From positions 32,398-96,397 of the forward strand of contig CAZMOM010000002.1 of the NCBI GenBank assembly GCA_964568075.1: a DNA stretch of 64,000 nucleotides, written 5' to 3'. How positions within the stretch are numbered: position 1 is the first letter of the stretch; each line of letters opens with the position of its first letter. This stretch comes from an uncultured Gammaproteobacteria bacterium. GTDB lineage: Bacteria > Pseudomonadota > Gammaproteobacteria > Steroidobacterales > MnTg04. Made by a program: the position numbers and the translations under genes. Positions 7,583 to 38,871 of this stretch are shown here, piece by piece. Below the pieces are notes generated by a model. The model was not told the origin of the DNA, searched no databases, and saw only the letters and a list, made by a program, of their open reading frames with translations.

Positions 7583-7616
7583 GCCGGTTTTATTGAGGAA
7601 TGACTCGAGGGACATA

Positions 7617-20163: not shown

Positions 20164-21162
20164 TCAGGTTCGGTGATGCGGCAGTCCGACAAACGTGCCG
20201 CCGTTTTGCTCGCAAAGCAGGCGCATCAGTGTCGCGAATCGTATCGTGGTCGTCTGCAGGTGTGTTGGCAGCGTAAGAAGGGCCGGGAATCCGACCGCGT
20301 TGATCCGGACCAACCGCTTTCCATCGCGACCCTCCCGGTTAATCTGGCTTACTAAATTCAGAACCTGATCAATTGATCGGCCGGTAAATTCATCGCCAAA
20401 AACGTAGAGGCTGATTTTTTTGTCTGGCGAATAAAAAGTCTCTATGGCTTTGGTTATTCCTTCGACCGGACTGGAATTACTGAACGCGTTCCAGGTTTTG
20501 AGCCTGTCCATAATCGCTTTGCGCCGCCCGGGTGTATCGGGTATCCATTTTCCTGTGTAGCGGGTGAACATAAACTTACCCATATCGTTCATGACCTGGA
20601 TACCCTTGACCTTGGGATAAATTTCCAGCGTTTCCCGAAATTTCTCCAGCATCAGCGGCCAACTGTAGTTAATCATGCTCCCCGATGTATCGATGATGAA
20701 AATAATGTATTCGCTGTCGACGGGTATCCCGCCGATCAAATTGTCGTTTTCTGATTTCTGATAATCAGCCAGCAATCGCTTCATTTCGGACGTAAGCGAC
20801 TGGCGGGCGGCCGCCAGTTTTCCCTGGATGATATTGATCAACTCCGCGTCCTGACGGGAAGCGGCAAACTCGCCCTGAATTTTCGACATTTCCGCCTGCA
20901 GACGCGCCAGGCGTTGCCTGGCGACTGATAGCTGGTCTTCCCGGGAGATCATTTCCCGATTGAGAATACTGGTCTCGCCCCAGATCTCGTGCAAATCACG
21001 TTGCCGGTCCTCAAGCGCAGCCTGCAGATCGATGGCGGACTGCTCGATCACGACCGGCTCGAAAACCTTGGTCAGCACCAGCATCAGAATAACGGCGCCG
21101 AAACCACAGCAGATGACGTCAAGAAAGGACAGTGTGAGTCCTGTATCGCGCTTTCGCTTCAT
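20164..21162 (-). CDS. ExbD/TolR/MotB-like Asp-TM anchor, coiled coil and periplasmic vWA domain protein (paralogue 2)
   Basis: The N-terminus MKRKRDTGLTLSFLDVICCGFGAVILMLVL is a single TM with an embedded Asp (compare ExbD PFIDV, TolR PLLDV). A heptad-rich segment of about 100 aa follows. The vWA domain has MIDAS-like IIFIIDTSGSM and a later VFGDE. Confidence 0.7.
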   Translation of the reverse strand: MKRKRDTGLTLSFLDVICCGFGAVILMLVLTKVFEPVVIEQSAIDLQAALEDRQRDLHEIWGETSILNREMISREDQLSVARQRLARLQAEMSKIQGEFAASRQDAELINIIQGKLAAARQSLTSEMKRLLADYQKSENDNLIGGIPVDSEYIIFIIDTSGSMINYSWPLMLEKFRETLEIYPKVKGIQVMNDMGKFMFTRYTGKWIPDTPGRRKAIMDRLKTWNAFSNSSPVEGITKAIETFYSPDKKISLYVFGDEFTGRSIDQVLNLVSQINREGRDGKRLVRINAVGFPALLTLPTHLQTTTIRFATLMRLLCEQNGGTFVGLPHHRT

Positions 21163-21174
21163 GTCGCGCCTCCT

Positions 21175-22272
21175 CTACGGCCAGTCCCGGGAGGGGCTCA
21201 GAAAAGACCCCTTGGTGGCCATTGCCAGCTTCCAGTAATCGGACGATGCCGCCGGATCGCCTTCCATCGGAAACAGCACGATGTTGATGGGAATATTCAA
21301 AGGAAGATATCTCACCGCCCTGTCGAATAGTCTCTCTCTTTGTCGTCCTGTGACCGTTCCAGACGCCCTGATGTTCTCACCCTGGGTTGGTAAGCCATCG
21401 ACCAGCAAATAAACATTGTCCGGTTGGGGATGGAGCGATGTAATTACAGCAAACGCTGCGTGCAGGCTGGTGCCTTTCTCCGGGACCAGCCGCCGCAAAT
21501 TCTCGACCGCCCGGTTCAGGTCGCTGCCATCCCCCGCCTCCAGCCAGCGTCCAGCTGTGCCCTCCACCAACGGCGTTGCAGTCGTGTTAAACGCGTATAT
21601 CTGAAACTGGCTGGTTGGCGGAATCTGCGCGGTCAGCCAGTCAACCGTTTTAATCGCCCGTTGCCATTTCCTTGCCGCGAGCTTTTGCTCTGTCCGCATG
21701 TTCCGGCGTCGAATAACATTGACGATCGTTTCATCGAGCATGCTTGCCGACGCGTCAAGCAGAATCAATATGCGGTCGCCCCCCATCTGCATGCCCGTCA
21801 GATATTGCCTGTTTCCTTCGCCGATGAACGAACGCACGCTGTCTCCGCGCTGCTCGCCTTGTTCGACACCGCCTTCCAGTCTTCGGCGTTCCTCCTCGTT
21901 TGCCTGCAGGTCGGCTTTCAGTTTGTTGACGCTCTCTTTACTCGCCAACGTATCCTCATCCAGCCTCGCCAGTTCGACCCGGATTTTTTCCAGGTCCTGT
22001 GCGATCGAGTCGGCAAGACCATCGGTGACTGTTTCTTTCTCGTCCAGAATCGTGACGTTATTCCTGATTTGGACCAGGTATTCCTTACCTTCAAGAACCT
22101 GTTCTTCGAGCCGGGCAATTTCAGAAAGAAGATCGATGTTAGCTTCTTCTGTGCGCCGCTCTGTCGAATGATTGATAATCAGAAAAACAAGAATGACGGC
22201 GCCAAAACCACAGGACATACAATCCAGAAAAGACAAGTTAAAAACATTCATTTGTCGTTTTCTGAGAGCCAT
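21175..22272 (-). CDS. ExbD/TolR/MotB-like Asp-TM anchor, coiled coil and periplasmic vWA domain protein (paralogue 1)
   Basis: The TM segment NLSFLDCMSCGFGAVILVFLI is followed by a long coiled coil. The vWA domain carries ILILLDASASM, GTSLHAAF and YLLVDGLPTQG. ATG 22272 lies 1 nt after the upstream stop; an alternative TTG start is at 22284. Confidence 0.7.
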   Translation of the reverse strand: MALRKRQMNVFNLSFLDCMSCGFGAVILVFLIINHSTERRTEEANIDLLSEIARLEEQVLEGKEYLVQIRNNVTILDEKETVTDGLADSIAQDLEKIRVELARLDEDTLASKESVNKLKADLQANEEERRRLEGGVEQGEQRGDSVRSFIGEGNRQYLTGMQMGGDRILILLDASASMLDETIVNVIRRRNMRTEQKLAARKWQRAIKTVDWLTAQIPPTSQFQIYAFNTTATPLVEGTAGRWLEAGDGSDLNRAVENLRRLVPEKGTSLHAAFAVITSLHPQPDNVYLLVDGLPTQGENIRASGTVTGRQRERLFDRAVRYLPLNIPINIVLFPMEGDPAASSDYWKLAMATKGSFLSPSRDWP

Positions 22273-22273
22273 G

Positions 22274-23617
22274 TTAATCGCCAATACTGATCAGCTGAAC
22301 GGTCTCGCCCGGCGATCCCATGCGTATGACGTCGCCCAGCGCCAGTTCGGCGAACTCAGTGATCTTTCGCCCGTTGACGAACGTTCCATAACTCGAATGG
22401 TCTTCCACTGTCGTTCTTCCTTTCGCGCTTTTTACAGTACAGTGTTTCCGCGAAACGCCATCCAGCACACCGACCAGCTTTACGCCGCGCTCATTTTCGG
22501 GGGGGTCGATACCCAAAACCAGTGGGCCGTCGCTCAGAGAGTAGGCCCTGGCGCGGTAAAGCAAATGACTGGGCTTCGTATTCGACGACATCGCGATCCT
22601 GGCCGGGGACGATCCGCCGGACAACGGCAAACTGCTTAAAAAACCGACTTCGCCATTGCCCGGGCCGCTATTGCAAAGCCCTGGACGCGCAAGCACGCCG
22701 CGTGCCGCCGCGTTTTCATCCAGCCACCGCGATTCCAGCCCGTCTATCAAGCCCAGACTTTCTTTCAGGCCCGGAAATCCTGCCATTCGATGGCTAATCG
22801 CCATCAATCGGCCTTGCCGCGGTCGGACCTGCTGAACGATCTGCGGGTAAACAGCCGAACTTGCCGATAACAGATGATCGACGCCCAATTGCACCGTGTA
22901 GGTCTTGTCGTCTGCTTCAAGATCAATCGACGTGTTGCCACCGGATTCGACATCCGCCAGCCAGCTATCGAGCTTGTTAAACAGCTGTTGCTCCGTTGCC
23001 GCTTTGTGCAAGGGATCGAAGCGTGTCTGGCGGACGAATATATCTGCAACAATATTGGCCCAGTTTTCACGCAGCGCAGACAACCCCGTTTCACAGACGA
23101 CGAATACGCCGGCACGGGAAAGCTGGTCATCACTTTCCAACTCCGTCAATACGATTCGTTGTTGTTGAAGATCGAGATGCAGAGCGGGTAAATCAGGCTC
23201 GAGCGAAATGCCGGCTGCCACCGCCGCATCCACCATGCCCAGCACCGGGATATCCAGATCGGAAGCAATGCCCAGCATCAGCCCCATCTGTTCCTGATTC
23301 CAGGTTCCGGGTACCGCAACGATCAAGCCCGAATCGGGTTTGGCCAGTTGTTGCCAGATGTGCTCAAGATGGGCGTGAGCCAGATCGGCATTGGTTCGAA
23401 ATCGACCGGATGGATTCGACAACGGCTCCTGATTGAGTCCGCTCCAGAAACTGGTGTTTGTCCACAAGGGCTTCAGCCGTGATCTGTCGAACGCTTCCTG
23501 GCCAAGAAAAATATGCGGGCCATCCAGCACGGCACAGGCAGGGCTGCTAACGACTGTACGCTGGCCATCGCTGACCACGAGATCAACATCATTTATTTCC
23601 AGGACGAGATCAGACAA
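22274..23617 (-). CDS. Hsp70/actin-fold-like protein fused to a C-terminal FHA domain
   Basis: The central AVPGTWNQEQMGLMLGIASDLDIPVLGMVDAAVAAGI mirrors the Hsp70 motif ([32 protein letters not shown]). The N-terminal phosphate-1 region looks degenerate (LVLEINDVDLVV). The C-terminus has canonical FHA motifs (GVSRKHC...SSYGTFVNGRKI...GDVIRMG). Confidence 0.65.
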   Translation of the reverse strand: MSDLVLEINDVDLVVSDGQRTVVSSPACAVLDGPHIFLGQEAFDRSRLKPLWTNTSFWSGLNQEPLSNPSGRFRTNADLAHAHLEHIWQQLAKPDSGLIVAVPGTWNQEQMGLMLGIASDLDIPVLGMVDAAVAAGISLEPDLPALHLDLQQQRIVLTELESDDQLSRAGVFVVCETGLSALRENWANIVADIFVRQTRFDPLHKAATEQQLFNKLDSWLADVESGGNTSIDLEADDKTYTVQLGVDHLLSASSAVYPQIVQQVRPRQGRLMAISHRMAGFPGLKESLGLIDGLESRWLDENAAARGVLARPGLCNSGPGNGEVGFLSSLPLSGGSSPARIAMSSNTKPSHLLYRARAYSLSDGPLVLGIDPPENERGVKLVGVLDGVSRKHCTVKSAKGRTTVEDHSSYGTFVNGRKITEFAELALGDVIRMGSPGETVQLISIGD

Positions 23618-23631
23618 CGGCGTCTCCTGCT

Positions 23632-24429
23632 TTAGCGGACCTGTAAATGTCGAATCAGTTGTTCATCGACATAAGTTTGGGAATCCAGAACTAGCCCCTC
23701 TTGCGCCTCCTGCAACTGGTGCAACAAAAACATTACGATGATGCTGATGATCAGTGCGACAAATGTCGAATTGAAAGCGATACCGAGTGCCTGCGTGACC
23801 CCGGTAATGTCTCCGGCGACCGCTTCATTGGCACGGCCCAGGGCCTGACCGATCCCCCTTACCGTGCCGATAAATCCCACAGACGGTATCGCCCACGCCA
23901 GATAGCGCACCATGGACAGTTCGGTATCCATGCGTTCCGATTCCGTATCGCAAACCGCCTTGACCGCTGTGGATACATCCTGGATGCTCTTCGTCGCACG
24001 AAACCGGTGCAGGGCCGTCAACAGGGCTCGCGGTAACAACCGCCTTTGTTGCTCAATATTCATCGCCTGCAAGGGTCTCGCGTATTCCCGCGTGTCCTCC
24101 GGCAGCACGCTGGTTCCTTCACGGACGGAAATCAGTTTTTCCAACAGGAAACTGCGTTCGCGGTTCGTTACGATCGCCTTGTAACCCATCAGCGCGAACG
24201 CCCAGAGCATCAGGATAAAACAGGTTTCCTGTTCAAAGTCCCTGATAATGACGTAAAGGGATCGCTGTGGAACATAGTTTTCATCCTGCTCGAGCAGGAC
24301 AGCTCGTTCCAGAATTACGGCTTCAGCTCTTGGCCGGACCATCGAAACATAGATCGCGTGAACGATAATGACCGCAAGTATCAGGGAAAAGACCTGATAC
24401 AAAAATTCAACTGGATAGCGTCGCTGCAT
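23632..24429 (-). CDS. MotA/TolQ/ExbB family proton channel protein
   Basis: The 265-aa protein has N-terminal TM helices and a cytoplasmic insert. Its C-terminal signature is YLAWAIPSVGFIGTVRGIGQAL...GVTQALGIAFNSTFVALIISIIVMFLLHQL, which matches the MotA_ExbB core pattern. Confidence 0.8.
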   Translation of the reverse strand: MQRRYPVEFLYQVFSLILAVIIVHAIYVSMVRPRAEAVILERAVLLEQDENYVPQRSLYVIIRDFEQETCFILMLWAFALMGYKAIVTNRERSFLLEKLISVREGTSVLPEDTREYARPLQAMNIEQQRRLLPRALLTALHRFRATKSIQDVSTAVKAVCDTESERMDTELSMVRYLAWAIPSVGFIGTVRGIGQALGRANEAVAGDITGVTQALGIAFNSTFVALIISIIVMFLLHQLQEAQEGLVLDSQTYVDEQLIRHLQVR

Positions 24430-24447
24430 AACCTTCCTTTGGAAAAA

Positions 24448-24729
24448 TCAGATATCGACCGGGTATGAGATAGACAGGTCACTGGACACCTTTTCGCTGG
24501 GCACAAAACTGTCCAGATCATCGATGGTTTGCGGCCGTTCCTCGCGTGGTTCTACGACCTGGGCTGCAGCGGCCATATCGTCGGCAGCAACCGCTGGCGC
24601 CGGATCGGCTACTCCCTGCTGCTCAGCGGTCCGGTCGGCGTCTTCTTCCTGAGCAACGAGGGGCCCGGAAAACCAAAAACAAATGGACAAGAGTATTCCC
24701 TGCGCTATGTTTCCTGCGTGCCTGATCAC
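24448..24729 (-). CDS. Small secreted acidic protein (signal peptide)
   Basis: The 93-aa protein has the signal MIRHAGNIAQGILLSICFWFSGPLVAQ followed by an E/D/A/P-rich region. Its placement within the operon is tight (14- and 18-nt gaps). I recognised no domain. Confidence 0.5.
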   Translation of the reverse strand: MIRHAGNIAQGILLSICFWFSGPLVAQEEDADRTAEQQGVADPAPAVAADDMAAAAQVVEPREERPQTIDDLDSFVPSEKVSSDLSISYPVDI

Positions 24730-24743
24730 ATCAGAACCTCCAC

Positions 24744-27245
24744 TTATTCAAGATACCGCGCCAGCCGAAAGCCCAGATCGTCACGCGGGTCCTTGGCGTA
24801 ATCGCGAAAACCGACCCTCAATTCGCTGACACCGCCGGATGTCCAGCTGGACCCGCGAACAACATAATACTCCCCACTGGCCGGGCCTAGCGGATCCGTA
24901 GTAAGTTTTCCGGCCCGCAGAGGGTCTGCCGAGTAATAGTCATGCACCCACTCCGCGACGTTGCCAGCCAAATCAAAAAACCCGGTATCGGTGGCGTCAA
25001 ATGAGCCCGTGGGGGAGGTGGCCGCATATTTATCGTCGTAGCCTTCGATAACCACTGACACCATCATGCGTGCCGAGTTATCTGCGAAATTTCCGGAGCC
25101 ACTGAGCGGAGGCAGATTTTCGCCCCATGGATAGCGATTTTTCACGCCCTGCCTCGTTTGTCGTTGCGCCATGGCCCATTCCGCCTCGGTCGGCAGTCGA
25201 TAACCGGTAGTCATCGGGCTGGCGCCGACCAGCAGGTCATTCTCCGCAACATAGGCTGGCGGCAATCCGTCTTTTTCACTTAACCAGTTACAATATCTCG
25301 CGGCATCCTGCCAACTGATCTGGACAACCGGATGAGTATTTTGGTTCAAACTCGTTTTCTTGACGGCGCCGGAATTATGCTCCCGGCTAAACTTGCGAAA
25401 CTCCGCATTACTGACTTCATGAGTCCCCAGATAAAAAGGCTTCTCCAGTACTACAGGATGCTCGATCTCATTCGAGCGTCGCCCCGGTTGGCGACGCGGC
25501 GTTCCCATATCGATGCGTCCACCTTTGATTAAATTCAGTTTCTGCCCGGCCGCAGTCTCGATCGTCTTCGGAATCGACTCCCAGCGAGCCTGTTCAAGCG
25601 TTTTCAGATGCGCCACAAGCTGTTGCTCAAAGCCGGGCCGCGGCGTTACCCGGGCATGAAACGGCGCAAATCCTGGTTTGGAAAACTCGATCAGATGTGG
25701 CTGCGCGGATAATTTGAGCTGAAGATTGGTTTCGCCGCGATTGACTCCGTCAACTTTCACCGTAGCACCGGCTGGTTCGCTTTTGACTGTGACGAGGCCG
25801 ACCAGCGCCTGCAGGTTAACCAACACGCTGGCGTCCTGATCGGAACGCACTCGCAGATTGCGCGTTGCATTTCGGTGGCCTGCCAATGAAAACGCCAATT
25901 GATATTCGCGGTCGGGCGCCAACGCGATGCTCAATGGTGTTCGGCCCCGGTACTGCCGGTTTACGGTCACGCTCGCCCCGGGCGGGTTACTGCGAACCGA
26001 TACTTTTCCGTCGGCCTTGAGCAGCGTCACGGGCAGAAGCTGATGATTTCCGGCAATGACATCGATATTTTCCTGCCAGGTCTTGAACCCTTTTCTGCTA
26101 ATTTTCAGCTGCCGGCTACCCTGTAGCAATTCAACCGTCAGCGGGGTACTGCCGATTTCCAGATCATCGACAAAAACCCGCGCAACGGACGGCACGGACG
26201 TGAGTTCATAATTTGCCCAGGCGGGCAACATCTCTATTGTCAGGCTCAGTTCGTGTCCTCCGCCTTCCACCTGGATTGTCTGTCGATGATCGAGATAACG
26301 ATCCGCGCGTAACAGCAACTCATGTTCGCCAGATTCAAGATCGATATCGGACAGGGGCGTTACGCCGAGATCCCTGTCGTCCACCCGAACCGAAGAAATA
26401 GCGACCGGCGTACTTTGAATGCGAAAGTAATCCGGTAGCCTGTTGAGCTGAAACAGTACCTCCTGATTGGCTGACCCATCGACCCGGAACGTTTCCCGGA
26501 GCGGATGATATCCCTGCTTTTGTGCCGAAACCCTGGCATCGCCCTGTAACAGCAGGTAACGGCCACCCAATTCAAAACTCAACCATGCGCCGTCAACGTC
26601 AAATTTATCCGGCATCGGTTCGATGACAACGCGCACGGCTGTAGCCGAAAACATAAATGCTGCCAATGCTGCAAGGATCAAAAACCCGGCCACAATCGCC
26701 ATGGGCAACGGACGAAAACGGTCTTTGCGATCGAGCCTTTGCGTGCTCCGCGAAAATGAGCCGGGAACAATTTTCTGCGCGGAGATTTCGGTCGCTGACG
26801 GTTTGGCAGTCACGCTGAGATCGCCTGGAGTATCTGGCGACGTCAGTACCCATGACTTGACGCCATCCGACTCCTCTTCGCCCGGTGGCAAAGTCGAATT
26901 GGTGTCACGGGCCTGAAGATAGAGAATGCCGCCACGCCCGTCGGAGGCGAAATTTAGAATCAGCGGCCCCGCTCGTACGCGGTCACCATTACTCAGCAGG
27001 ACGGAGTCATCGATTTTTCGGCCGTTGACGAAAACACCCGGCGACCCGGACTCGATCTTCAGGGTCACTTTGCCGGCGTCGACGACAAAACTCGCTACCG
27101 GCTGCTGAACGTTGGTTGGCAAACTGCTCACCGGCAAGATCTCGCCGGTTTTGTCCAGAACCAGATAAAGCTCCGACTGGCTCTGTTGCTTATCGCCCGC
27201 TGACCGGTTGGTGTCAGTATGATTGGTCAAATCTTTTCCTCGCAC
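24744..27245 (-). CDS. FHA-like, TM, PEGA repeats and FGE-sulfatase (SUMF1/EgtB/PvdO-type) domain protein
   Basis: The cytoplasmic N-terminus has an FHA-like core (GVFVNGRKIDDSVLLSNGDRVRAGPLIL). A TM (MAIVAGFLILAALAAFMF) follows, then about 5 PEGA-like repeats (for example ARVFVDDLEIGSTPLTVELLQGSRQLKISRKGF). The C-terminus has FGE-type motifs (HPVVQISWQDAARYCNWL, GYRLPTEAEWAMA, GNVAEWVHDYY, VVRGSSW). The start is GTG 27245 or the TTG overlapping the upstream TGA. Confidence 0.8.
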   Translation of the reverse strand: MRGKDLTNHTDTNRSAGDKQQSQSELYLVLDKTGEILPVSSLPTNVQQPVASFVVDAGKVTLKIESGSPGVFVNGRKIDDSVLLSNGDRVRAGPLILNFASDGRGGILYLQARDTNSTLPPGEEESDGVKSWVLTSPDTPGDLSVTAKPSATEISAQKIVPGSFSRSTQRLDRKDRFRPLPMAIVAGFLILAALAAFMFSATAVRVVIEPMPDKFDVDGAWLSFELGGRYLLLQGDARVSAQKQGYHPLRETFRVDGSANQEVLFQLNRLPDYFRIQSTPVAISSVRVDDRDLGVTPLSDIDLESGEHELLLRADRYLDHRQTIQVEGGGHELSLTIEMLPAWANYELTSVPSVARVFVDDLEIGSTPLTVELLQGSRQLKISRKGFKTWQENIDVIAGNHQLLPVTLLKADGKVSVRSNPPGASVTVNRQYRGRTPLSIALAPDREYQLAFSLAGHRNATRNLRVRSDQDASVLVNLQALVGLVTVKSEPAGATVKVDGVNRGETNLQLKLSAQPHLIEFSKPGFAPFHARVTPRPGFEQQLVAHLKTLEQARWESIPKTIETAAGQKLNLIKGGRIDMGTPRRQPGRRSNEIEHPVVLEKPFYLGTHEVSNAEFRKFSREHNSGAVKKTSLNQNTHPVVQISWQDAARYCNWLSEKDGLPPAYVAENDLLVGASPMTTGYRLPTEAEWAMAQRQTRQGVKNRYPWGENLPPLSGSGNFADNSARMMVSVVIEGYDDKYAATSPTGSFDATDTGFFDLAGNVAEWVHDYYSADPLRAGKLTTDPLGPASGEYYVVRGSSWTSGGVSELRVGFRDYAKDPRDDLGFRLARYLE

Positions 27246-29611
27246 CGTATCAATACGGGCTCAGGCGATTCGCCAGGCCTGATGACGATTTGCTTTCTGA
27301 CATCGCGATACCCGTCACGAGTACCGATCAGGGTATACCGGCCAGGCAAAAGCTCCAGCGAATGATTGTTAAATGAACCCAGCCTGCCGATCTGGTAAAC
27401 GAAAACTTCGGTCATCGTGTCAGAGACCAGATCTATTTTTACCGGTATTCGGGCGAGCTGGAGTTGCAATTGCAACTGAACCAGTTGGCTGCTCAGCCGC
27501 GGACCAGGATTCGGCAAAAGATGTACCTGCTCGAGAAAACCCAGCGCCGCCTGGTAAACACCGTCTTCAGCCAGGCGCTCTGGCTTTTCTGTGTATAAAA
27601 CGAACTCCTCGTCCACGCCGATCATTTTTTGCGCCAGCGTTACGCCCTCGCGGCCAAACACGAGGTTGGGATCAAGTTTCAGCGCCGACTGGTACGCCAG
27701 CAGTGCTCGCTCCCATCGTTCATTGGCCGCATGGCCGTCGGCCTGTATACGGTATCGGCTGATTTCATTCAGCTTCATGACCTCATCGACCTGGTGCAGA
27801 CCATCCTTGGCGTCGACCGAGCCGGGATTAAGTCTTAGCGCCACCTGAAACGATTTCTTTGCCTGCTCCAGCTTGTTTTGGGCCAGGTAGGAAAATCCGT
27901 CGGACATCGACCGACTGAAATTCTGCCTGGCCAGACTTTTCTCCAAATCGCCAAGTGCGTTTATTGCCGGCTGCCAGGCTGGATTCAGATTTAGCACCTT
28001 GCGATAGGCGTCGCGCGCGGCAGAAATCTGATCTTCGTGCAAAAGGGATTCCGCGTCTGTCATCAACTGAAGTACCTGGTCGAGATTCTGCGCCCGAGCC
28101 AACCCTTGCCGAGCCCTGTTACTGTTCGAATAGATTGCAACCGCCAATTCATACTGCTGTTGGGCGCCGGTCGAATTACCGTCCGCCAAAGCGCTATCTC
28201 CGGCATCCAGCGCCGCTTCGAACACCGGGTTCACACGGTCGGTCAGCGCGTCGCTTTTTTCCAGCGCCGAGACATAGCTGGCCAGCGCAGCCAAATAATT
28301 TCCTTCGCGAAATAATGAATCTCCCTCGCGGGCCTGCTCAACTGCCGCGATAAACTCCTCGGCGGCCCAGAGATTGACGGCTCGATCTTCCAGTGCAATT
28401 TGCCGCCTCAACAATTGCGCAACCAGGCGCTCCGCCTGCTCGCGATTGCGCGCCGCTTCGGCAGACTCATAAGGGGCCAGCCTGGTCGCCTCTTGCACAT
28501 CGGCCAAGTCAGCAGCGGTTGAATTTAAGCTTTCTGGCGGCAACCCGGATTCGGGAGATGCGGTCAGCGTCTGATCGGGTTTTCTTTTAGCGACCTGCTC
28601 CGGTAAATACAAAAAAACGGCAGCAGCCAACAACAACAGGACGGCCATGATCAACCCGGGTATCCACGGTCGCCTGTCCAATAGATCCTGATCGACCGTG
28701 CCAGAGAGATCAGCGCTCACCGGCGCCACTGCGTGACGACGGATTTGTGTGATTTTGTCTGGCTCACTGTTTCCGGCGGCCGGTTGTTCTCCCGGCGGCA
28801 GCGTGGCTGTGCTGCCAAGACCGGTGGCATCGGCAAGCGCATTGCGTACCGCAGCGACCGATGAGGGCCTTTCAGCCGGAATCTTGGCCAGCATGCTCAT
28901 GATCAACGTGGTAAGGCCCGCCGGAAGCGGGTAGTCCGTCTGCGGCGGAACGGGTACCTCGTTCCGTATCTTGTCGTGATCGATGCTGGGATGAAACGGC
29001 GGCTTGCCCGTGAGCAGCTCGTAGATCATGACCCCCAATGCGTAGATGTCGTCGGCGACTGCGGCAGGATCGCCGTCAAGTTGCTGCGGACTGATCGAAT
29101 AGGGCGAGCCGCCTCCTTCGATTCCAGCGGAATCCCCGCTGAGCCCGCCGATCCCGAAGTCGCTGAGTTTGACCGTTCCATCGAGCGCAATCAGCACATT
29201 TTTGAGTTTGAGATCGCGGTGAACCATGCCCGCCTTGTGGGCATATTCCACCGCTTCGAGGACCGGAAACAGCATCGGCAGCCAATCTTTGTAGTGACGG
29301 CCAGCCATGGCCTCGAGATCGTCGCCTTCCACATATTCCATTGAGAAAAAGTGGCTATCGTCACTGCTGAAGAAATCCAGGACGCGAGTGATATTTGGAT
29401 GTACGAGCTTGCGAATGAGACTGCATTCCTTGCGCAGCCTTTCGACCATGTCCGGGTTGGCGGCGAGGGCAGGCTTTAGAATCTTGACAGCGACCCGGCT
29501 CGAAAACTCCTTGTCCTCAGCAAGCCAGACGTCGCCCATCCCCCCATGCCCCAATGGAGCGATCAGTGAAAAACGGCCGGATAATATTTGTCCCTTGTGG
29601 TATTCCTGCAT
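27227..29611 (-). CDS. Serine/threonine protein kinase (Hanks), TM, periplasmic TPR repeats and C-terminal PEGA-like domain
   Basis: Kinase motifs are GHGGMGDVW, VAVKILK, HRDLKLKNVLI and LSDFGIG. The TM is PGLIMAVLLLLAAAVFLYL. At least 5 TPR-like repeats follow, and the C-terminus (LELLPGRYTLIGTRDGYRDVRKQIVIRPG) is PEGA-like. Confidence 0.85.
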   Translation of the reverse strand: MQEYHKGQILSGRFSLIAPLGHGGMGDVWLAEDKEFSSRVAVKILKPALAANPDMVERLRKECSLIRKLVHPNITRVLDFFSSDDSHFFSMEYVEGDDLEAMAGRHYKDWLPMLFPVLEAVEYAHKAGMVHRDLKLKNVLIALDGTVKLSDFGIGGLSGDSAGIEGGGSPYSISPQQLDGDPAAVADDIYALGVMIYELLTGKPPFHPSIDHDKIRNEVPVPPQTDYPLPAGLTTLIMSMLAKIPAERPSSVAAVRNALADATGLGSTATLPPGEQPAAGNSEPDKITQIRRHAVAPVSADLSGTVDQDLLDRRPWIPGLIMAVLLLLAAAVFLYLPEQVAKRKPDQTLTASPESGLPPESLNSTAADLADVQEATRLAPYESAEAARNREQAERLVAQLLRRQIALEDRAVNLWAAEEFIAAVEQAREGDSLFREGNYLAALASYVSALEKSDALTDRVNPVFEAALDAGDSALADGNSTGAQQQYELAVAIYSNSNRARQGLARAQNLDQVLQLMTDAESLLHEDQISAARDAYRKVLNLNPAWQPAINALGDLEKSLARQNFSRSMSDGFSYLAQNKLEQAKKSFQVALRLNPGSVDAKDGLHQVDEVMKLNEISRYRIQADGHAANERWERALLAYQSALKLDPNLVFGREGVTLAQKMIGVDEEFVLYTEKPERLAEDGVYQAALGFLEQVHLLPNPGPRLSSQLVQLQLQLQLARIPVKIDLVSDTMTEVFVYQIGRLGSFNNHSLELLPGRYTLIGTRDGYRDVRKQIVIRPGESPEPVLIRCEEKI

Positions 29612-29626
29612 CGTTTGAAAGGCTAT

Positions 29627-30865
29627 TTATGGCCGGGCGCCATCCGGTTTCGGGACCCCACCCTGTTCGTCCACAATAAAACCGGTTTCCGCAGCGTAAA
29701 TTTCCCGCAGAATATCCCGCCACTCATCGAATTGCGCATCGACGGTACCGGTCAGCTCCACAGTCTGGCCCTCCACATCAACCACCAACGGTGCGACCTG
29801 GGCTTCCATGGATTCGCTCAACTCCTTGATCGCCTCGAAATGGAGCTTCGATTCTTTCGATTTATCCAGGCCGCTCTTAATTGCTGTTATGCCACCGATT
29901 ATGGCGCCGGTCGAGGCGAGCTGGCCTGCCTGGGTATGGGATTTCTGACTGGCTGCGATTCCGCCGATCACCATCAGCCCGCCCGCGAGCAACCGGTTTC
30001 TGGCGGATGCCTTAAGTTCTCTAAGCGCCTGCGCCTCTTCGAAGGTATATTTCCGCCACTCCGAATACGGCTGATCCATTTGCCGATACAGCCCCGCGTA
30101 ATACTCATCCAGCGTATCGACATACATATATTCACGTTGGCGGATACGCAACATCCTGCCGACCATCGGGTCGTCGGTCGATGGCAAACGTCGTACCCGG
30201 TATTTACCTCTTCGGTTTTCCAGGTAATCGCCAAATACTTCCGGTGACAGATCGCCGGCAAATCGCAATTCTGCAACCCGCCGCACGTTCGTCAACTGAT
30301 CTTCAGTCATTTTTTGACGTACCGCCAGCAAATCATTGGCGATGGCATGATATAAATCCTGGAACGGGTCGCCACGCGACGGAATATATTCCTTATAGGC
30401 GTACTTACTCGCCTTATCCTGATATCTTTTTTTCAGCCATTGCTGCCCCGTCGCATCAACTGCCTCAATTTCGAGTTTTAGTATCTCTCCATCTGACGAA
30501 ATAATTTCGCCAAATACGATCAAGTCCATGCCGGCCGTCACTTTTGGCAGAACACGAACAGCGCCCCAATTCCCGGTGTCCTCAAGAACGCGCTTCACCT
30601 GATACGCCATGTACCGGGCTTCGGCCTTGCGAACCTCAGGGAAAATGTTTCGACTGTCTTCCTCGGTCGCCTGCTCGTCCAGATTAGACTCCAGACCAGG
30701 ATCGAAGATCACGATACCGACATCCAGCACGGTCGAATCCTGTATCTCCGCTCCCGCCTTGATCAGTCGGGTTGGATTAGCCTTAATTATATTCTGCTGC
30801 ACACAACCGCTGACCAAAAGTACGATCAGTAACACGATCCCTGTGTAAAATTTTGTGTTCTGCAT
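29627..30865 (-). CDS. Lipoprotein with C-terminal glycine-zipper segments
   Basis: The signal plus lipobox is MQNTKFYTGIVLLIVLLVSGC. Gly-zipper-like segments LLAGGLMVIGGIAAS and GAIIGGITAIKSG occur near residue 300. The start overlaps the upstream stop (TAATG). Confidence 0.6.
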   Translation of the reverse strand: MQNTKFYTGIVLLIVLLVSGCVQQNIIKANPTRLIKAGAEIQDSTVLDVGIVIFDPGLESNLDEQATEEDSRNIFPEVRKAEARYMAYQVKRVLEDTGNWGAVRVLPKVTAGMDLIVFGEIISSDGEILKLEIEAVDATGQQWLKKRYQDKASKYAYKEYIPSRGDPFQDLYHAIANDLLAVRQKMTEDQLTNVRRVAELRFAGDLSPEVFGDYLENRRGKYRVRRLPSTDDPMVGRMLRIRQREYMYVDTLDEYYAGLYRQMDQPYSEWRKYTFEEAQALRELKASARNRLLAGGLMVIGGIAASQKSHTQAGQLASTGAIIGGITAIKSGLDKSKESKLHFEAIKELSESMEAQVAPLVVDVEGQTVELTGTVDAQFDEWRDILREIYAAETGFIVDEQGGVPKPDGARP

Positions 30866-32574
30866 TATTGTCCAGTCGCTTTCTTGTACGCCCGGTATTC
30901 GTCCCAGAGTTTATCTCTAAGAACCGGGTCAAGTTCGTTTTCCGCCGCCTCACGCAGCTGTCTCGCGACGATGTCATCATCGCTCCCATCAGGAATATCT
31001 TCCGGTGGCGGGCTGGGCTGGGCATTGCCGCCCTCTTTCCGGATCAATGAGGATTTATCCTGCCCGTTGCTCGCTTCACCCGCGGTTTGCCCCGCCTGCG
31101 CAATCAGGAGATCGTCTTCGCCCGCAATCGTGTCGCCATCGTCGGAACCGAATCCCCGGTCGTTTCCTTCGTCGCCAAACTCACCGCCACCGATAGCAAT
31201 TCCAATTTTTGAACCCCGACCGGCCAGTAACACACCGTCAAGAGTCGCCAGGGAACCGGACAATTGCGCATCCAGAACCACCACCCGGTCCGCTGACGTT
31301 CGCGCGCCGGGAATAACCAATATGACTCCGCTGCCACTAGAAGAACCGTCATCAAGGCCCGGCATTCCCGGCAGACCGAGTCCACCCGGCAGCATGATTC
31401 CACCCGGCAAGAGTATGCTTCCGGGAACGGTTGTGAGGTCACCGGCGAGAACCATCCTGACGCCTGCATTCTGTCCGTTTGCCTGGTCAGCGTCGGTGTC
31501 CACTGAGCGCATCCCCTCGTTTATTGCATTCATGACCTGCGCCAGACCTTGTAATGCGGCAAGCCTGACCTGCAATTCTTCTCCCGGTGAACCTTCACTC
31601 GACTCATCGGCGTCGGAACCCTGCTGCGGTTTCGAACCGCTTTCTAATTCTGCCGTTTCACCGCTTTGCGTTTTGGCTGCGCCGCTGGCCAAAGCCGCGC
31701 TGGCTTTTTCGACTTCCGCCGCAACCTCGACCAAAGCTTCGCCGACCGCTATCCTCAGTGCCTCCTGGTATTCCGGGCTGCCCATGTCCGGCAGGTCCCC
31801 TGCCCGATTGTCCGCATCAGCATCGGCTGATCGGACCGAATTCATTTGCGACTCTGCAACCGCGTCGATCAAGTCCTGAAGCGTCTGCCGCGCCCGCGCC
31901 ATGGCCTGGTCAGCGCTCTGCAGATCGGCCGCGGACGCAGCATCGGTCTGCTTTGCCGACTGGCCACCGGCGTTCCCGCTACTGCTGTCGGCTACCTGAG
32001 TCTCGTCGCTGGAGACAGAATCGCCCTGGGCACTCTCCGTCTTTTCCTGGTCATTCTGCTGGTCGGCGTCGGCGACCGCCTGGTCGGCTGCCTTCTGCTC
32101 GTCTTCGTCGTCTTCCTCCTCGTTCGAACTGGCCGCCGCCTCCGACTCGCTTAATTCCGGTTCTTGCTGCTCATCGGTAGCCTCGGCAACGGCTTCGGCC
32201 GCTTCATCCAGCGCCTCATTGGCAGCTTGTATCGCCTCGTCCGCAGCCTGCATGGCCTCGTCTCCGGACGCTGATTCAGATTCGTCGCTGCTGCTGTCGG
32301 CCGCGGCACTGCTCGCCGCTGCTGACGAGCTGCTTTGCTGACTGTATTCGGGACTGGAGGACGCGCTGCTCGATGAACTCTCCTGGCTTTGCGTCTGCAA
32401 CTCGGCCATGCTCTGACTCGCCGACGAAGTCTGCGTCTGGCTTTGACTTTGTGACTGCGACTGGCTTTGCGAAGACGATTCGGATTGCTGCTGCGGTGGC
32501 GTCACACAGCCGGCGATCAGGAAAACGCAAACAACCGGTATCCATCTGTGAATTCTGATATTTGTAGTCATCAT
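30865..32574 (-). CDS. Hyper-acidic, low-complexity (S/Q/E/D/A-rich) lipoprotein
   Basis: The likely start at 32574 gives MMTTNIRIHRWIPVVCVFLIAGC, which contains a lipobox. It is followed by SQSQSQSQSQSQTQT and long S/A/E/D tracts (EEDDEDEQ). The C-terminus is an ordered-looking helix, DDDIVARQLREAAENELDPVLRDKLWDEYRAYKK. Confidence 0.6.
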   Translation of the reverse strand: MMTTNIRIHRWIPVVCVFLIAGCVTPPQQQSESSSQSQSQSQSQSQTQTSSASQSMAELQTQSQESSSSSASSSPEYSQQSSSSAAASSAAADSSSDESESASGDEAMQAADEAIQAANEALDEAAEAVAEATDEQQEPELSESEAAASSNEEEDDEDEQKAADQAVADADQQNDQEKTESAQGDSVSSDETQVADSSSGNAGGQSAKQTDAASAADLQSADQAMARARQTLQDLIDAVAESQMNSVRSADADADNRAGDLPDMGSPEYQEALRIAVGEALVEVAAEVEKASAALASGAAKTQSGETAELESGSKPQQGSDADESSEGSPGEELQVRLAALQGLAQVMNAINEGMRSVDTDADQANGQNAGVRMVLAGDLTTVPGSILLPGGIMLPGGLGLPGMPGLDDGSSSGSGVILVIPGARTSADRVVVLDAQLSGSLATLDGVLLAGRGSKIGIAIGGGEFGDEGNDRGFGSDDGDTIAGEDDLLIAQAGQTAGEASNGQDKSSLIRKEGGNAQPSPPPEDIPDGSDDDIVARQLREAAENELDPVLRDKLWDEYRAYKKATGQ

Positions 32575-32803
32575 GAAACCTGCCTTTGGCTTTTTTTGGT
32601 GAGCCAGATCGAGCGAACCTACCGCAATTAATCGCGGTCCAAGGATACTCGCCCGCTCCTCGTGGTCACAACCATTCATTCGTGGCTGTTTTGGGGCACT
32701 CCCTTGATTAGACTGGCAATCCGGTTAAAGTTCTGCTATCCGGGGCGGAACTATTATCGCTCCTACCGCTCGTAACTGAACAGATACTGGAAGAAACGTA
32801 TTG

Positions 32804-33514
32804 ATGCATAACAACTCCGGGCCGTCGAGAAGTTTCGCTTATAACTATATGTTTTTTAAACATATTTATTTTTCCTCGTTTTTTCGGTGCGTCTTTCTGG
32901 CGATCGCCGGCACCTGCCTTGCCGGCTGCGTAAACATAATTAGCGCCGTGGGTAGCTTTCCTGTGCCGCCTGGCGAAAAAATGCCGTTGACCATCGCCCT
33001 GTATTTCGCCGAAGAATTCAGAAATTATGCGCCTGTCGAAGATCTATACCAAAAAAACGACTGGCAGGTAAATCTGGGAATAGCGAGTACCCAAATGTTT
33101 AGCCAGGTATTTAGCAACATCAGCCGCGACACCGTTATCCTGGATAAAAAGCCAGGCAGTGATTCTCAGGTCGCGGCGGATCTCATCGTCGTCCCGTCAA
33201 TAACCGATTTCGGACTGCTCGACCCGGCGGTGACTCCACTCGACTTTTTTTCCATGTCCTTCAAGTACAGGGTTGATATATTCACACCCGATGGGGCGTT
33301 GCTGGACGAATGGACTTTCAACGCTTATGGCAAGACAGCGTCCCGCGTATTTGGCGATAAGGAGTCAGTCAGACAAGCGCTGTTAATTGCCCTGCGCGAT
33401 GCTGCCGCTTCTCTGACACTCGATTTTTCGCGCCAGCCCGGGGTAAGGGGATTGCTCATGAAAACGAAATCGAAAACCATTGCCGAGGCAAATCAGGATG
33501 TCGCAAACAATTAA
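32804..33514 (+). CDS. Lipoprotein, unknown function
   Basis: The signal FFRCVFLAIAGTCLAGC contains a lipobox. The gene is divergent from the nine-gene operon. The start is uncertain (TTG 32801, ATG 32804 or ATG 32849). Confidence 0.5.
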   Translation: MHNNSGPSRSFAYNYMFFKHIYFSSFFRCVFLAIAGTCLAGCVNIISAVGSFPVPPGEKMPLTIALYFAEEFRNYAPVEDLYQKNDWQVNLGIASTQMFSQVFSNISRDTVILDKKPGSDSQVAADLIVVPSITDFGLLDPAVTPLDFFSMSFKYRVDIFTPDGALLDEWTFNAYGKTASRVFGDKESVRQALLIALRDAAASLTLDFSRQPGVRGLLMKTKSKTIAEANQDVANN

Positions 33515-34211
33515 ATATCCGAAAAACAGTTCCGCAGTAAGAATCCGGCTGGGGGCGGCACTGTTGCTTTTCGCGGTCGCGCTCGGCGGTTGCGTCAACT
33601 CGCAAGTCGAGGAATTTCGCCACCTGTCTGGCACGCAGCCCATCGAAGCTATTCAGGAATACGAATCAGTCGTCGTTTTAACGCGAAGGACCCATACGGG
33701 AAAAGAAACAGAGGAATCTTTTACCAATTGTGTGTCCGATAAATTAAAATCCGGTAAACGGTCGTTGCGGGTAACTGATCAAGCTCGTTTTGTCGATCTG
33801 ATGTTTCCGTATTTCGAACCGAGGCTTGCTCCGAACAACCTCTACGAATTGCCAACTTTACTGGCTCGACCGGGTGTCCTGGATCGAATGAACGATATCG
33901 GTGTTCGATATATGATCTGGATCGATGGAAGTACGCAGAGCCTGGACCAGGGCGGTACGATGACCTGCGCATTGAGTCCTGCCGGCGCCGGGTGCCTGGG
34001 CTTCACCTGGCGGGAAAAAGAGTCCAGTTACGAAGCATCCATCTGGGATCTGAAAACCCAGGAAATCAAAGGCACGATCAGTGCCGATGCCAAAGGCACG
34101 TCCTTTATGCCCGCGCTGATCATTCCCATCCCAATGATAGCTCGAACTGCGAAGGCCGCCTGCAACGGCCTGGCAAGCCAGATTCATGCCTTTCTGACGG
34201 AGCAGGGATAG
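33498..34211 (+). CDS. Lipoprotein, unknown function
   Basis: MSQTIKYPKNSSAVRIRLGAALLLFAVALGGC contains a lipobox. The gene overlaps the end of the previous gene. I recognised no domain. Confidence 0.5.
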   Translation: MSQTIKYPKNSSAVRIRLGAALLLFAVALGGCVNSQVEEFRHLSGTQPIEAIQEYESVVVLTRRTHTGKETEESFTNCVSDKLKSGKRSLRVTDQARFVDLMFPYFEPRLAPNNLYELPTLLARPGVLDRMNDIGVRYMIWIDGSTQSLDQGGTMTCALSPAGAGCLGFTWREKESSYEASIWDLKTQEIKGTISADAKGTSFMPALIIPIPMIARTAKAACNGLASQIHAFLTEQG

Positions 34212-34223: not shown

Positions 34224-35768
34224 TCAGTTTACCGGGGAAACGGTGTCGGAAAATTCTTCCCGGAACAGTTCCGGCGTTGCGACCGGCTTCCCATCGATAA
34301 ATCGAGGCCGATAAATAGAGCGACGAACCTCTTTTCTGAACTGCGTGAGCATCGAGGCCGGCGCAGTCGACTGAGTGACTTCCACATTATCGACATGACC
34401 GTTGGACATGACCACAAAAGACGCCTCCGCGAACGTGCCGTCGTATTTGGTATATCGCCCTGCTGCATTGATCCTTGGCCTGGGCTTTATATACCGCAGT
34501 CGTTTTGGCCGGCCAAAAAACAGGTCGGCTAACTCAAGCGAATTGGTTTCCGCCTCAATGATTTCCAGGGCTTTCTGATAGGTCTCGATGCCCAGGTCCG
34601 TTTTTCCTATCTTCAAGTACAGATCACCCAGTCGGATATGAACCCTCATCCTTTCGGCCGCTGTGACCGTATCCTCGTGCATGTCAACGATCCGTAAGGC
34701 TCGCATGAGCGCTTCCAAAGCCTGATTCGTCGTTGCGCCCTGCACTCTGTCCGGTCCAATCCGTCGATTCGCAGTCTGTCTTGAGATAAAGGCCGGATCA
34801 ATTCTGGGATCGTAAAACCCCGTGGCTGATAAGGTCGCCGCTTCGTTCATGCGTCGTTGTCGAACTTCGCGTACCTGTTGTTCAAATTGTCGAACCGACG
34901 CCACCCCAAGCAAAAGATCGATAAGCGCGATATCGTTTTCGCCCAGACTGTTTTCGGTGACGTGTATGGCTGCAAAGTAAAGGTTCTTGGCGTCGTCAAG
35001 CATGCGGACGCTGGCCTTGAACCTGGCCAGCCTGACCATCGAAGGAACCGCCAATACCGAATTCCTGCCATAACGATGGATATCGACATTATTTAGAAGC
35101 TCTTGTGCTTTGTTCGCACTATCCAGATCGCGCCCTGCCAGGTGGCTGACCGTCATCAGTTCCAACGCTGCAGCTTGGTCGGGGCTATACACGCCATCGT
35201 GGCGATGGCTGATATGCTGGGAGCGAAAAAACAAGTTTATGGCTTCGTCGTGATTACCGGCATTTTGCAAAGTCCTGCCCCAGCCGTTAATCACTTCGAC
35301 CAGACGGGCATCATAAATTCCGCCGTCTCTTTCAATCAGGTCGGTCGCGCGTCGGTAGTTCCCGAGTGCCTCCGCCTCATTACCAGTTAGCGCCTGGATT
35401 GACGCCAGGTTGGCTATTGGCCTGATCAGTGCCGGGTCGAAAGGATTCTCGGGATCGCCAGCCCGTTCAATCCCCATCCGGGCCAGCGCCAAAGCATCCG
35501 GGTGACGCTTCGCCAACAACATTTTCTGCGACTCTTCGATCAGCTGATCGCTGGCCAGATCACCCGGAATAATCAGTGGCGCCGGTTCCGTGTCAGTCTC
35601 GCCCGATGCCGGAAAATCGTCCGTTGATGACTGAACCAATGAAAGGTCATCGGCTCCCGTTGCGGCATTTTCAGAAGGATCGGCGGTCCGCCCCGTCTCA
35701 GGCAGATTTTGCGCAAACACAGCCAGCGGGGAAAAAAGAACAGCCAGAAAAAATAAATTGCGCGGCAT
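34224..35768 (-). CDS. Secreted TPR-repeat protein with TonB C-terminal-like domain (no TM anchor)
   Basis: The cleavable-looking signal is MPRNLFFLAVLFSPLAVFAQ. Multiple TPR-like helical repeats follow. The C-terminus (GTFAEASFVVMSNGHVDNVEVTQSTAPASMLTQFRKEVRRSIYRPRFIDGKPV) fits the TonB_C pattern. Confidence 0.65.
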   Translation of the reverse strand: MPRNLFFLAVLFSPLAVFAQNLPETGRTADPSENAATGADDLSLVQSSTDDFPASGETDTEPAPLIIPGDLASDQLIEESQKMLLAKRHPDALALARMGIERAGDPENPFDPALIRPIANLASIQALTGNEAEALGNYRRATDLIERDGGIYDARLVEVINGWGRTLQNAGNHDEAINLFFRSQHISHRHDGVYSPDQAAALELMTVSHLAGRDLDSANKAQELLNNVDIHRYGRNSVLAVPSMVRLARFKASVRMLDDAKNLYFAAIHVTENSLGENDIALIDLLLGVASVRQFEQQVREVRQRRMNEAATLSATGFYDPRIDPAFISRQTANRRIGPDRVQGATTNQALEALMRALRIVDMHEDTVTAAERMRVHIRLGDLYLKIGKTDLGIETYQKALEIIEAETNSLELADLFFGRPKRLRYIKPRPRINAAGRYTKYDGTFAEASFVVMSNGHVDNVEVTQSTAPASMLTQFRKEVRRSIYRPRFIDGKPVATPELFREEFSDTVSPVN

Positions 35769-37652: not shown

Positions 37653-37713
37653 ATTGGCCGGTTGCCAAACTCTCCCATTCAGTCAAATCCGATCACTTTA
37701 TCAGGGTCAAATA

Positions 37714-38844: not shown

Positions 38845-38871
38845 CACCCAGTTGTTTATGCCACCCGGAAA

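Follow-up and report, generated by a model that had tools for sequence, protein, structure and literature searches.

A MotA/TolQ-family motor with paired von Willebrand factor A proteins and a co-inherited set of envelope proteins: a candidate trans-envelope machine of Gammaproteobacteria

A cluster of about 12 genes in an uncultured gammaproteobacterium (Steroidobacterales, MnTg04; assembly GCA_964568075.1) can be read as encoding a trans-envelope machine that is driven by the proton motive force (PMF), has a 5:2 motor like those of Tol, Ton and MotAB and serves a housekeeping role in the envelope, a reading to which we give an even chance. The cluster is centered on nine minus-strand genes at positions 20164-32574 of the window, that is, of the whole stretch of 64,000 nucleotides that was analyzed (contig CAZMOM010000002.1, positions 32,398 to 96,397 of the forward strand). 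Proton-driven 5:2 motors power flagella, nutrient import, outer-membrane stabilization, gliding, secretion and phage defence, and each newly recognized coupling of such a motor has opened a field. Here, the inner dimer of the motor itself is predicted to bear adhesin-type von Willebrand factor A (vWA) heads, and the motor is accompanied by a fixed set of eight envelope proteins not described as a system before. The set is abundant in marine and sediment bacteria, with thousands of metagenomic homologs and representation in at least 597 species. The genes of the cluster, designated g1 to g9 and u1 to u3, are the following.

g1, 30865-32574, minus strand: hyper-acidic lipoprotein (lipobox IAGC) with a long low-complexity tether and a conserved C-terminal block
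g2, 29627-30865, minus strand: lipoprotein of 412 amino acids (aa; lipobox VSGC) with an N-terminal alpha/beta domain, a long helical hairpin with a Gly-zipper, and a small C-terminal domain
g3, 27227-29611, minus strand: Hanks Ser/Thr kinase, transmembrane helix (residues 316-334), periplasmic TPR region and C-terminal PEGA-like domain (Pfam and family-specific hidden Markov model, HMM)
g4, 24744-27245, minus strand: weak FHA domain, transmembrane helix (residues 180-198), five PEGA repeats (residues 202-548) and a head resembling FGE-sulfatase (Pfam and family-specific HMM)
g5, 24448-24729, minus strand: small secreted acidic protein with a signal peptide and an invariant extreme C-terminus
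g6, 23632-24429, minus strand: channel subunit of the MotA/TolQ/ExbB family (PF01618 match), presumed to form the pentamer of a 5:2 motor
g7, 22274-23617, minus strand: cytoplasmic accessory protein of 447 aa with a domain like the nucleotide-binding domain (NBD) of Hsp70 (residues 1 to about 330) and an FHA domain (about 350-447; Pfam, AlphaFold2 and Foldseek)
g8, 21175-22272, minus strand: 369-aa open reading frame (ORF) with an Asp-bearing trans-pore helix, a coiled coil of about 130 aa and a predicted vWA domain with a complete metal ion-dependent adhesion site (MIDAS); paralog A
g9, 20164-21162, minus strand: 332 aa, with an Asp-bearing trans-pore helix, a coiled coil of about 120 aa and a divergent predicted vWA domain; paralog B
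u1, 32801-33514, plus strand: lipoprotein of about 200 aa (lipobox LAGC), paired with u2
u2, 33480-34211, plus strand: lipoprotein of about 220 aa whose N-terminus ends in LGGC, with four cysteines conserved outside the lipobox (C84, C163, C172 and C228)
u3, 34224-35768, minus strand: secreted TPR protein of 514 aa with a signal-peptide-like N-terminus (Pfam TPR_12/TPR_1), upstream of the operon

An earlier note on this DNA, made from the letters and their reading frames, had placed the product of 23632-24429 in the MotA/ExbB family, and the profile search agrees: g6 matches MotA_ExbB (PF01618) over residues 134-248 with E 3.4e-14 and 53.1 bits, the cut-off being 22.9. An alignment of 47 diverse homologs reveals two Thr-bearing motifs in the third and fourth transmembrane segments, GF(I/L)GTVRGI, with T189 conserved in at least 90%, and AFNST(F/L)VAL, with T222 invariant; by analogy with T145 and T178 of TolQ, we take these two threonines to line the pore. 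The pair E66-Q67, just ahead of the second hydrophobic segment, is also invariant. Homologs of g6 number more than 7,600 in a database clustered at 90%, and there are 162 clusters at 50% identity with E below 1e-30.

No ExbD, TolR or MotB was found by Pfam searches in the cluster or its flanks, nor in the related loci examined. The data support g8 and g9 as the replacement for these proteins, presumably as the dimeric Asp-helix partner of g6. The two proteins, proposed earlier to be paralogs that each combine an Asp-bearing transmembrane helix, a coiled coil and a vWA domain, are indeed full-length paralogs, their family profiles aligning over 316 columns (hhalign probability 99.8%, E 1e-27). 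Both families share the N-terminal helix motif SFLD..CGFGA with an invariant Asp, and the g8 and g9 helices contain neither His nor an SHLS motif. The predicted coiled coil of about 120-130 residues leads to the vWA region, where the MIDAS signature DxSxS is invariant in both families: the conserved set comprises D177-x-S179-x-S181, a GTS motif and D296 in g8, and the g9 alignment has D15, D158-x-S160-x-S162 and D257 invariant. The Pfam VWA_2 model matches g8 slightly under its cut-off (4e-5, 24.6 bits, cut-off 27) and 37 of 38 g8 homologs (best 1.7e-9); g9 itself has no Pfam match, and 13 of its 37 homologs are matched by VWA_2. Profile searches of the PDB with g8 and g9 gave coiled-coil noise only, with an integrin I-domain at E 0.24, so the assignment of both as vWA proteins is taken from the Pfam scans of homologs together with the paralogy.

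The distribution of the cluster was assessed at several levels: one genome per species was scanned with the motor protein, giving at least 597 species; gene order was counted in 48 species-level genome loci with enough flank and domain content in 58 complete genome loci; and 41 metagenome contigs were found with distant motor sequences as seed. The species with relatives of the motor protein are mostly Gammaproteobacteria, including Pseudomonadales (Azotimanducaceae, Porticoccus, Pseudohongiella), Woeseiaceae, Halioxenophilus and Spectribacter, with some metagenome-assembled genomes (MAGs) labelled Acidobacteriota or Rhodospirillaceae. In 46 of the 48 loci, g1-g4 and g6-g9 are colinear on one strand, and since this order is kept in independent loci, the cluster is not a chance arrangement. 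The same gene order recurs in a Desulfobacteraceae genome (Desulfobacterota), in one unrelated 5.1-Mb genome and in the 41 metagenome contigs, and MAGs labelled Acidobacteriota are among those that show it. Co-occurrence of these genes in other genomes, on which the earlier note had made its proposal depend, is thus observed in both genomes and metagenomes, and the single operon that it had described around a MotA/TolQ-type channel holds as one co-inherited unit.

Within the window, the nine ORFs are consecutive on the minus strand and each neighboring pair overlaps or lies 18 nt or less apart, as had been described. Their bounds in the ORF table are 30865-32679, 29627-30865, 27227-29611, 24744-27245, 24448-24729, 23632-24429, 22274-23617, 21175-22284 and 20164-21162, in the order g1 to g9. 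The three junctions named before were all read directly: TAATG at 30863-30867 between g1 and g2 (in the context 'caaTAATGcag'), the TTG/TGA overlap at 27227-27230 between g3 and g4 ('gatTTGAcc'), and TAAcATG at 22270-22276 between g7 and g8 ('gatTAAcATGgct'). The other junctions are gaps of 12-18 nt. Translation of g1 most likely starts at the ATG at 32574 and not at the ORF edge at 32679; this ATG is preceded by an AGG-containing stretch, and a protein begun there has a signal peptide with the lipobox IAGC at its end. For g8, the ATG at 22272 is the most likely start, not the ORF edge at 22284, because it agrees with the beginning 'MA(R/K)(R/K)R' of the homologs. Promoter and terminator scans of the cluster yielded counts no different from those in shuffled sequence, and say nothing on transcript structure.

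A unit of nine genes is nevertheless too small, as the lipoproteins u1 and u2 (together 32801-34211) and the secreted TPR protein u3 are to be added. Here, u1 and u2 lie just upstream of the operon on the opposite strand, and they are likewise upstream and divergent in genomes resembling the window, whereas in many other loci their homologs directly follow g9 on the same strand; u2 is therefore part of the system, moved to a divergent position in this genome. Weakly similar TPR genes were found by tblastn in 26 of the 48 genome loci, usually just upstream of g1 and on the same strand as it.

With u1 and u2, the cluster encodes four lipoproteins, the others being g1 and g2. Aspartate and glutamate in g1 total 107, against 36 lysines and arginines, and its length varies from 166 to 801 aa across species, conservation being confined to a C-terminal block of about 45 aa (55-80% identity). 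This block, with which every form ends and which is encoded within 30865-31000 in the window, reads ..DDDIVARQLREAA..E.DPELREKLWEEYRKYK and follows the pattern ..DIPDGxDDDIVARQLREAAxxExDPELREKLWEEYRKYK; it matches no Pfam family. Present in 47 of the 48 loci, g2 has 3043 homologs, none with a Pfam domain, and its AlphaFold2 model (pLDDT 77) has an N-terminal domain that Foldseek matches to the N-terminal domain of TolB and to LptE (E 5e-4, probability 0.98-1.0). PDB profile searches with g2, u1 and u2 found nothing, and u1 and u2 have no Pfam relative. A small ORF at the position of g5 is found in 78 of 81 loci with the conserved C-terminal motif F-x-P-S-E-x-I-x-x-D-x-x-V-x-F-P-V-D-I-COOH, which is invariant, and the acidic middle of the protein is variable; this C-terminus looks like a docking peptide, possibly for periplasmic TPR domains. 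The predicted topology of the nine proteins is likewise in accord with the first reading, g1 and g2 being lipoproteins, g3 and g4 single-pass proteins with cytoplasmic N-termini, g5 secreted, and g8 and g9 each having one N-terminal helix.

The domains named from the letters (MotA_ExbB, Pkinase, TPR, PEGA, FGE-sulfatase, FHA, vWA and Hsp70) all have profile or fold evidence, the weakest being that for FHA in g4. In g3, the kinase (Pkinase 6e-41) has readable HRD, DFG and VAVK motifs, several TPR models match (TPR_2 5e-13), and a family-specific HMM finds a PEGA-like domain at residues 730-787. In g4, the PEGA (9e-49) and FGE-sulfatase (PF03781, 2e-43) matches are strong, and the family-specific HMM counts five PEGA repeats, as do 76 of 80 homologs, so that both the five repeats and the PEGA domain of the kinase protein are confirmed. 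The N-terminal FHA match of g4 is borderline (9e-4, 20.0 bits, cut-off 20.7), retrieved no homologs as a tblastn query, and according to the family HMM is restricted to long forms of g4 (about 800 aa), the short forms (about 690 aa) being devoid of FHA. The C-terminal FHA domain of g7 is recognized by Pfam (3e-11). The rest of this protein is recognized by fold: a profile of 50 g7 sequences matches the NBDs of Hsp70 proteins (SSB1 6e-5, DnaK 7.5e-4), and the AlphaFold2 model (pLDDT 90) has only Hsp70 NBDs among its top Foldseek matches in the PDB (1e-15, TM-score about 0.68 normalized to NBD-only targets).

In two Gammaproteobacteria MAGs (loci L063 and L081), one ORF of about 1470-1550 aa spans the g3/g4 region; that of L081 combines the kinase domain and five PEGA repeats with a weak match to FHA, an apparent g3-g4 fusion, and that of L063 looks similar. 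Such a fusion would support a physical interaction between g3 and g4, and could also be a frameshift or an assembly artefact.

The phosphothreonine reader/writer layer, which had been presented as part of the machine, turns out not to define it, being accessory and nested. The periplasmic part of g3 is kept in all loci, whereas the kinase domain is present in 28 of the 58 complete genome loci and missing in the other 30, where g3 is a protein of about 500 aa with a transmembrane helix, TPR and PEGA. In the kinase-bearing loci, g7 invariably carries FHA (28 of 28); in the kinase-less ones it carries FHA in 25 of 30 and lacks it in 5. The whole of g7 is missing in 13 of the 41 metagenome loci, g6 then abutting g8. 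The kinase is thus found only where g7 bears FHA, which argues that it is linked to FHA and signals to that of g7. The invariant core, made up of g1, g2, the periplasmic parts of g3 and g4, g5, g6, g8 and g9, lies wholly in the envelope.

This nesting bears on an alternative that we consider unlikely, in which the cluster is a sensor of envelope damage or envelope state resembling the TagQRST-PpkA-Fha1 pathway: periplasmic modules (the FGE-like head, vWA, TPR and the lipoproteins) would detect a perturbation, the kinase would signal to FHA, and the motor would serve as an energized probe or mechanosensor. The domain set is indeed that of the pathway (Hanks kinase, FHA, an FGE-family protein, TagR, of COG1262, a periplasmic vWA domain and outer-membrane lipoproteins), and a second Ser/Thr signalling cassette lies 12 kb away in the window. 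Three genes make up that separate cassette (4110-8378, plus strand), for a kinase of 878 aa with a CHASE2 domain, a PP2C phosphatase of 286 aa (6722-7582) and a 261-aa FHA protein; as no phosphatase is encoded in the operon itself, the PP2C may be its partner in trans. Yet the kinase is lost from about half of the genome loci and g7 from 13 of the 41 metagenome loci, with the motor and the envelope parts retained, and a sensing role is hard to picture where no cytoplasmic output remains. The cluster also encodes no phosphatase, TagS/T-like ABC component or downstream effector.

The head of g4 bears on another alternative. Its C-terminal segment 'VVRGSSWTSGGVSELRVGFRD' (the 'RGSSWTSGG..' stretch) was read directly and contains no cysteines, and hence no pair of the kind that marks a catalytic FGE; the head would therefore be a binding module and not an enzyme, probably a non-catalytic binding domain as in GldK or TagR. 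GldK/PorK is also the best NCBIfam match of g4 (2e-26), limited to the FGE domain and at 93 bits against a cut-off of 350. This match, the intact MIDAS of the predicted vWA domains, which is typical of adhesion modules, and the components in common with Agl-Glt (an FHA protein with a transmembrane helix, FHA-TMH, TPR proteins and lipoproteins) would suit a device for surface adhesion, gliding or secretion, with the motor either displacing or presenting an adhesin or powering a ring in the periplasm, on the model of Agl-Glt or of the GldKLMN complex of the type IX secretion system (T9SS). We regard such a device as quite unlikely: no outer-membrane beta-barrel, secretin, GldL/M/N, PorN or T9SS substrate signal was found in the cluster, the vWA domains are held at the inner membrane, with no surface exposure predicted, and the GldK score is far under its cut-off. 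Moreover, the carriers are mostly planktonic or sediment marine Gammaproteobacteria, which are not known to glide.

The genomic setting is that of the core chromosome. The cluster lies between rnr-rlmB and purA-hflCK-hflX-miaA-mutL, the core genes of the window being radA, alr, dnaB, rnr, rlmB, purA, hflKC, hflX, miaA, mutL, an amidase gene, queG and pcnB, and its GC content is unremarkable. No NCBIfam equivalog was found for any of the nine proteins, and profile searches of the cluster and its flanks agree with the previous statement that flagellar, Tol-Pal, TonB, type VI secretion system (T6SS), T9SS and Zorya partner genes are absent. An anti-phage or conflict system of the Zorya type, in which a MotAB-like motor senses a breach of the envelope by a phage and triggers a response, had been offered earlier as one possible role. 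Zorya does provide a precedent for 5:2 motors in defence, the PADLOC models include a weak ZorA2 match (1.2e-3), and the g3 kinase is generically like defence kinases. However, PADLOC returned nothing specific beyond generic kinase matches and this ZorA2 match, which is limited to the shared MotA domain; no ZorB/C/D/E, nuclease or other effector domain is encoded in the cluster; tblastn with g9 found no homolog in 72,556 plasmids or 50,697 phage records; and the vertical-looking synteny is conserved across orders on the core chromosome and not in a variable island. A defence role is thereby rendered highly improbable, and the same evidence, from core location to missing effector, favors a housekeeping force transducer.

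Further out in the window, beyond u3, three envelope-associated proteins are encoded at 36129-41091, an M48 peptidase of 507 aa, a 442-aa peptidase of the trypsin-like kind and a patatin-Omp85 protein of 739 aa; their genes are not kept beside the cluster in other genomes. The sole Rfam/ARAGORN matches in the window are tRNA-Leu(CAG) at 16720-16806 and tRNA-Glu(CTC) at 60924-60998 (plus strand).

The favored reading, a PMF-driven machine with a housekeeping envelope role, can be cast as a mechanism on the strength of sequence and precedent. Five copies of g6 would form the inner-membrane channel, and the N-terminal helices of g8 and g9 would sit inside it as a heterodimer, each with a proton-binding-type Asp as in MotB, ExbD and TolR. 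Ion flow would turn or pull this dimer, whose coiled coil of about 120-130 residues would carry the two metal-binding vWA heads across the periplasm. There, the heads might engage cell-wall or outer-membrane partners, so that the load would be drawn from the co-inherited envelope proteins; one candidate is the FGE-like head that g4 carries on a stalk of five PEGA repeats, and the others are g1, g2 (through its TolB-N/LptE-like domain) and the C-terminal peptide of g5, with the TPR proteins g3 and u3 as possible scaffolds. The acidic g1 and g5 are candidate ligands of the MIDAS metal. The pairing of vWA with the FGE-like head of g4 might be an attractive one, with a precedent in TagR, an FGE-family protein (COG1262) that acts on the vWA domain in the periplasmic part of the kinase PpkA (PMC3224232, PMC13584744), and the reach of the five-PEGA stalk is perhaps about that of the coiled coil. 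In the lineage of the present genome, the kinase of g3 would in addition phosphorylate a threonine to be read by the FHA domains of g7 and g4, and the Hsp70-like body of g7 would gate or localize the motor.

Several points weigh against this reading. A crude hydropathy scan of g6 gives four hydrophobic segments (13-31, 69-87, about 175-197 and 210-228), which is the number found in MotA, TolQ and ExbB having three transmembrane helices. The glycine-rich phosphate loops usual for Hsp70 are not evident in the g7 consensus when inspected by eye, without ligand-site superposition, although D10 and D149 are invariant; their absence makes the use of ATP by g7 doubtful, and its Hsp70-like body may be a scaffold or clutch instead of an ATPase. 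The fold match of g2 is modest, with E 5e-4 and a TM-score of about 0.2 when the full chain is counted. Domains of the peptidoglycan-binding or TonB/TolA-like kind, which could anchor the force, were not found in the cluster. Every partner assigned to the vWA heads is inferred, and the output, which could be outer-membrane tethering, envelope maintenance, or the handling of surface polymers or lipoproteins, is a guess. Finally, the features that define an already published motor family, described below, are all present here, a likeness at the level of described features, homology with the Idiomarina loihiensis exemplar being putative.

The load of the vWA heads, once known, would show a new Gram-negative use of inner-membrane energy at the outer envelope, and the natural versions with and without the kinase/FHA/Hsp70-like layer provide a ready-made comparison for motor regulation.

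Among known systems, the closest to the motor core is a family predicted computationally, as the second of its vWA families, in a recent analysis of periplasmic force transducers (PMC12204202, Mol Biol Evol 2025, 'Origin and Evolution of Bacterial Periplasmic Force Transducers', Fig. 4c-d). This family, found in Proteobacteria, combines a TolQ-like motor with a heterologous pair of vWA proteins in place of TolR/ExbD; the vWA proteins have a TolR/ExbD-like trans-pore helix with a conserved Asp, and AlphaFold 3 places two such helices inside a TolQ-like pentamer, no function or phenotype being reported. The present cluster shares the tolQ/exbB-type gene beside two different vWA genes, the lack of tolR/exbD, the Asp helix and the lack of SHLS. 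The published description, drawn from synteny and AlphaFold 3 models, is confined to the motor and the vWA pair, the lipoproteins, the PEGA-FGE protein, the TPR(-kinase) protein, g5 and the Hsp70-FHA protein being absent from its main and supplementary text, and full-text literature searches found no other paper describing the full gene set. The claim of an undescribed machine, made in the earlier note, consequently holds for the full gene set, which has no prior description and matches no experimentally characterized system, and does not extend to the motor core, which had been predicted already.

Tol-Pal and ExbBD-TonB resemble the cluster in having a PMF-driven channel of the MotA/TolQ/ExbB family, an Asp-helix partner and an elongated periplasmic element directed towards outer-membrane lipoproteins, and the N-terminal domain of g2 resembles that of TolB. 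They differ in that the cluster lacks TolR/ExbD, TolA/TonB, the TolB beta-propeller, a Pal/OmpA-like domain and a TonB-dependent receptor, and in that the dimer itself is predicted to bear the distal vWA domains, whereas in those systems a separate transducer is attached laterally to the motor. On the cluster, the TolQ model reaches 24 bits against a cut-off of 221, and no TolR, TolA, TolB or Pal model matches.

The threonine phosphorylation pathway TagQRST-PpkA-PppA-Fha1 of the Pseudomonas aeruginosa H1-T6SS shares a Hanks kinase with a periplasmic sensor, FHA readers, outer-membrane lipoproteins, an FGE-family periplasmic protein (TagR) and, on PpkA, a vWA domain in the periplasm. The cluster differs from it in lacking T6SS genes, the PppA phosphatase and TagS/T, in placing vWA on the partners of the motor instead of the kinase, and in that the kinase/FHA layer is dispensable in many homologous clusters. 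The TagH/Fha model reaches 18.8 bits against a cut-off of 120, and the searches revealed neither a PP2C gene within the cluster nor T6SS genes in its flanks.

Zorya (ZorAB) also combines a MotA-family pentamer with a non-canonical dimer partner; the cluster, in contrast, lacks the long tail of ZorA, the peptidoglycan-binding domain of ZorB and the effectors ZorC/D/E, lies in a core-genome setting, and matches no Zor model except ZorA2 on the MotA domain (1.2e-3). The conflict systems of Kaur et al. 2020 (PMC7159879), which share vWA, FHA, PEGA and Hsp70, were considered as well and set aside, as they are centered on MoxR or GTPases, with no mention of MotA/ExbB.

In Agl-Glt of Myxococcus and in GldKLMN/PorKLMN of Bacteroidetes, a 5:2 motor is coupled to a multi-protein periplasmic and outer-membrane assembly, as is proposed here. 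Agl-Glt, whose motor is TolQR-like, further includes the FHA-TMH protein GltG, TPR proteins, lipoproteins and a vWA adhesin (CglB), and GldK is an FGE-fold protein. The layout of GltG, which has been modelled docked on the TolQ-like AglR pentamer (PMC11761067), is resembled by that of the long form of g4. The cluster has no family-level match to Glt, Gld or Por proteins, the GldK model (93 bits against 350) matching the FGE domain only, no GldL, GldM or GldN, and no outer-membrane barrel or ring partner. What is new here is the complete system, that is, an invariant envelope core, two putative docking motifs at the C-termini of g1 and g5, and a modular regulatory layer. Somewhat short of an even chance, in our estimate, is the broader proposal that it represents a further class of energized trans-envelope machine beside Ton, Tol-Pal, the flagellar stator, GldLM and Zorya, kept by several hundred or more gammaproteobacterial species, by Desulfobacterota and by MAGs with the label Acidobacteriota, in which a motor with a TolQ-like channel and a vWA heterodimer would serve a novel envelope function together with its own outer-membrane lipoproteins and a periplasmic PEGA/FGE/TPR scaffold, an Hsp70-like/FHA/kinase clutch being added in some lineages.

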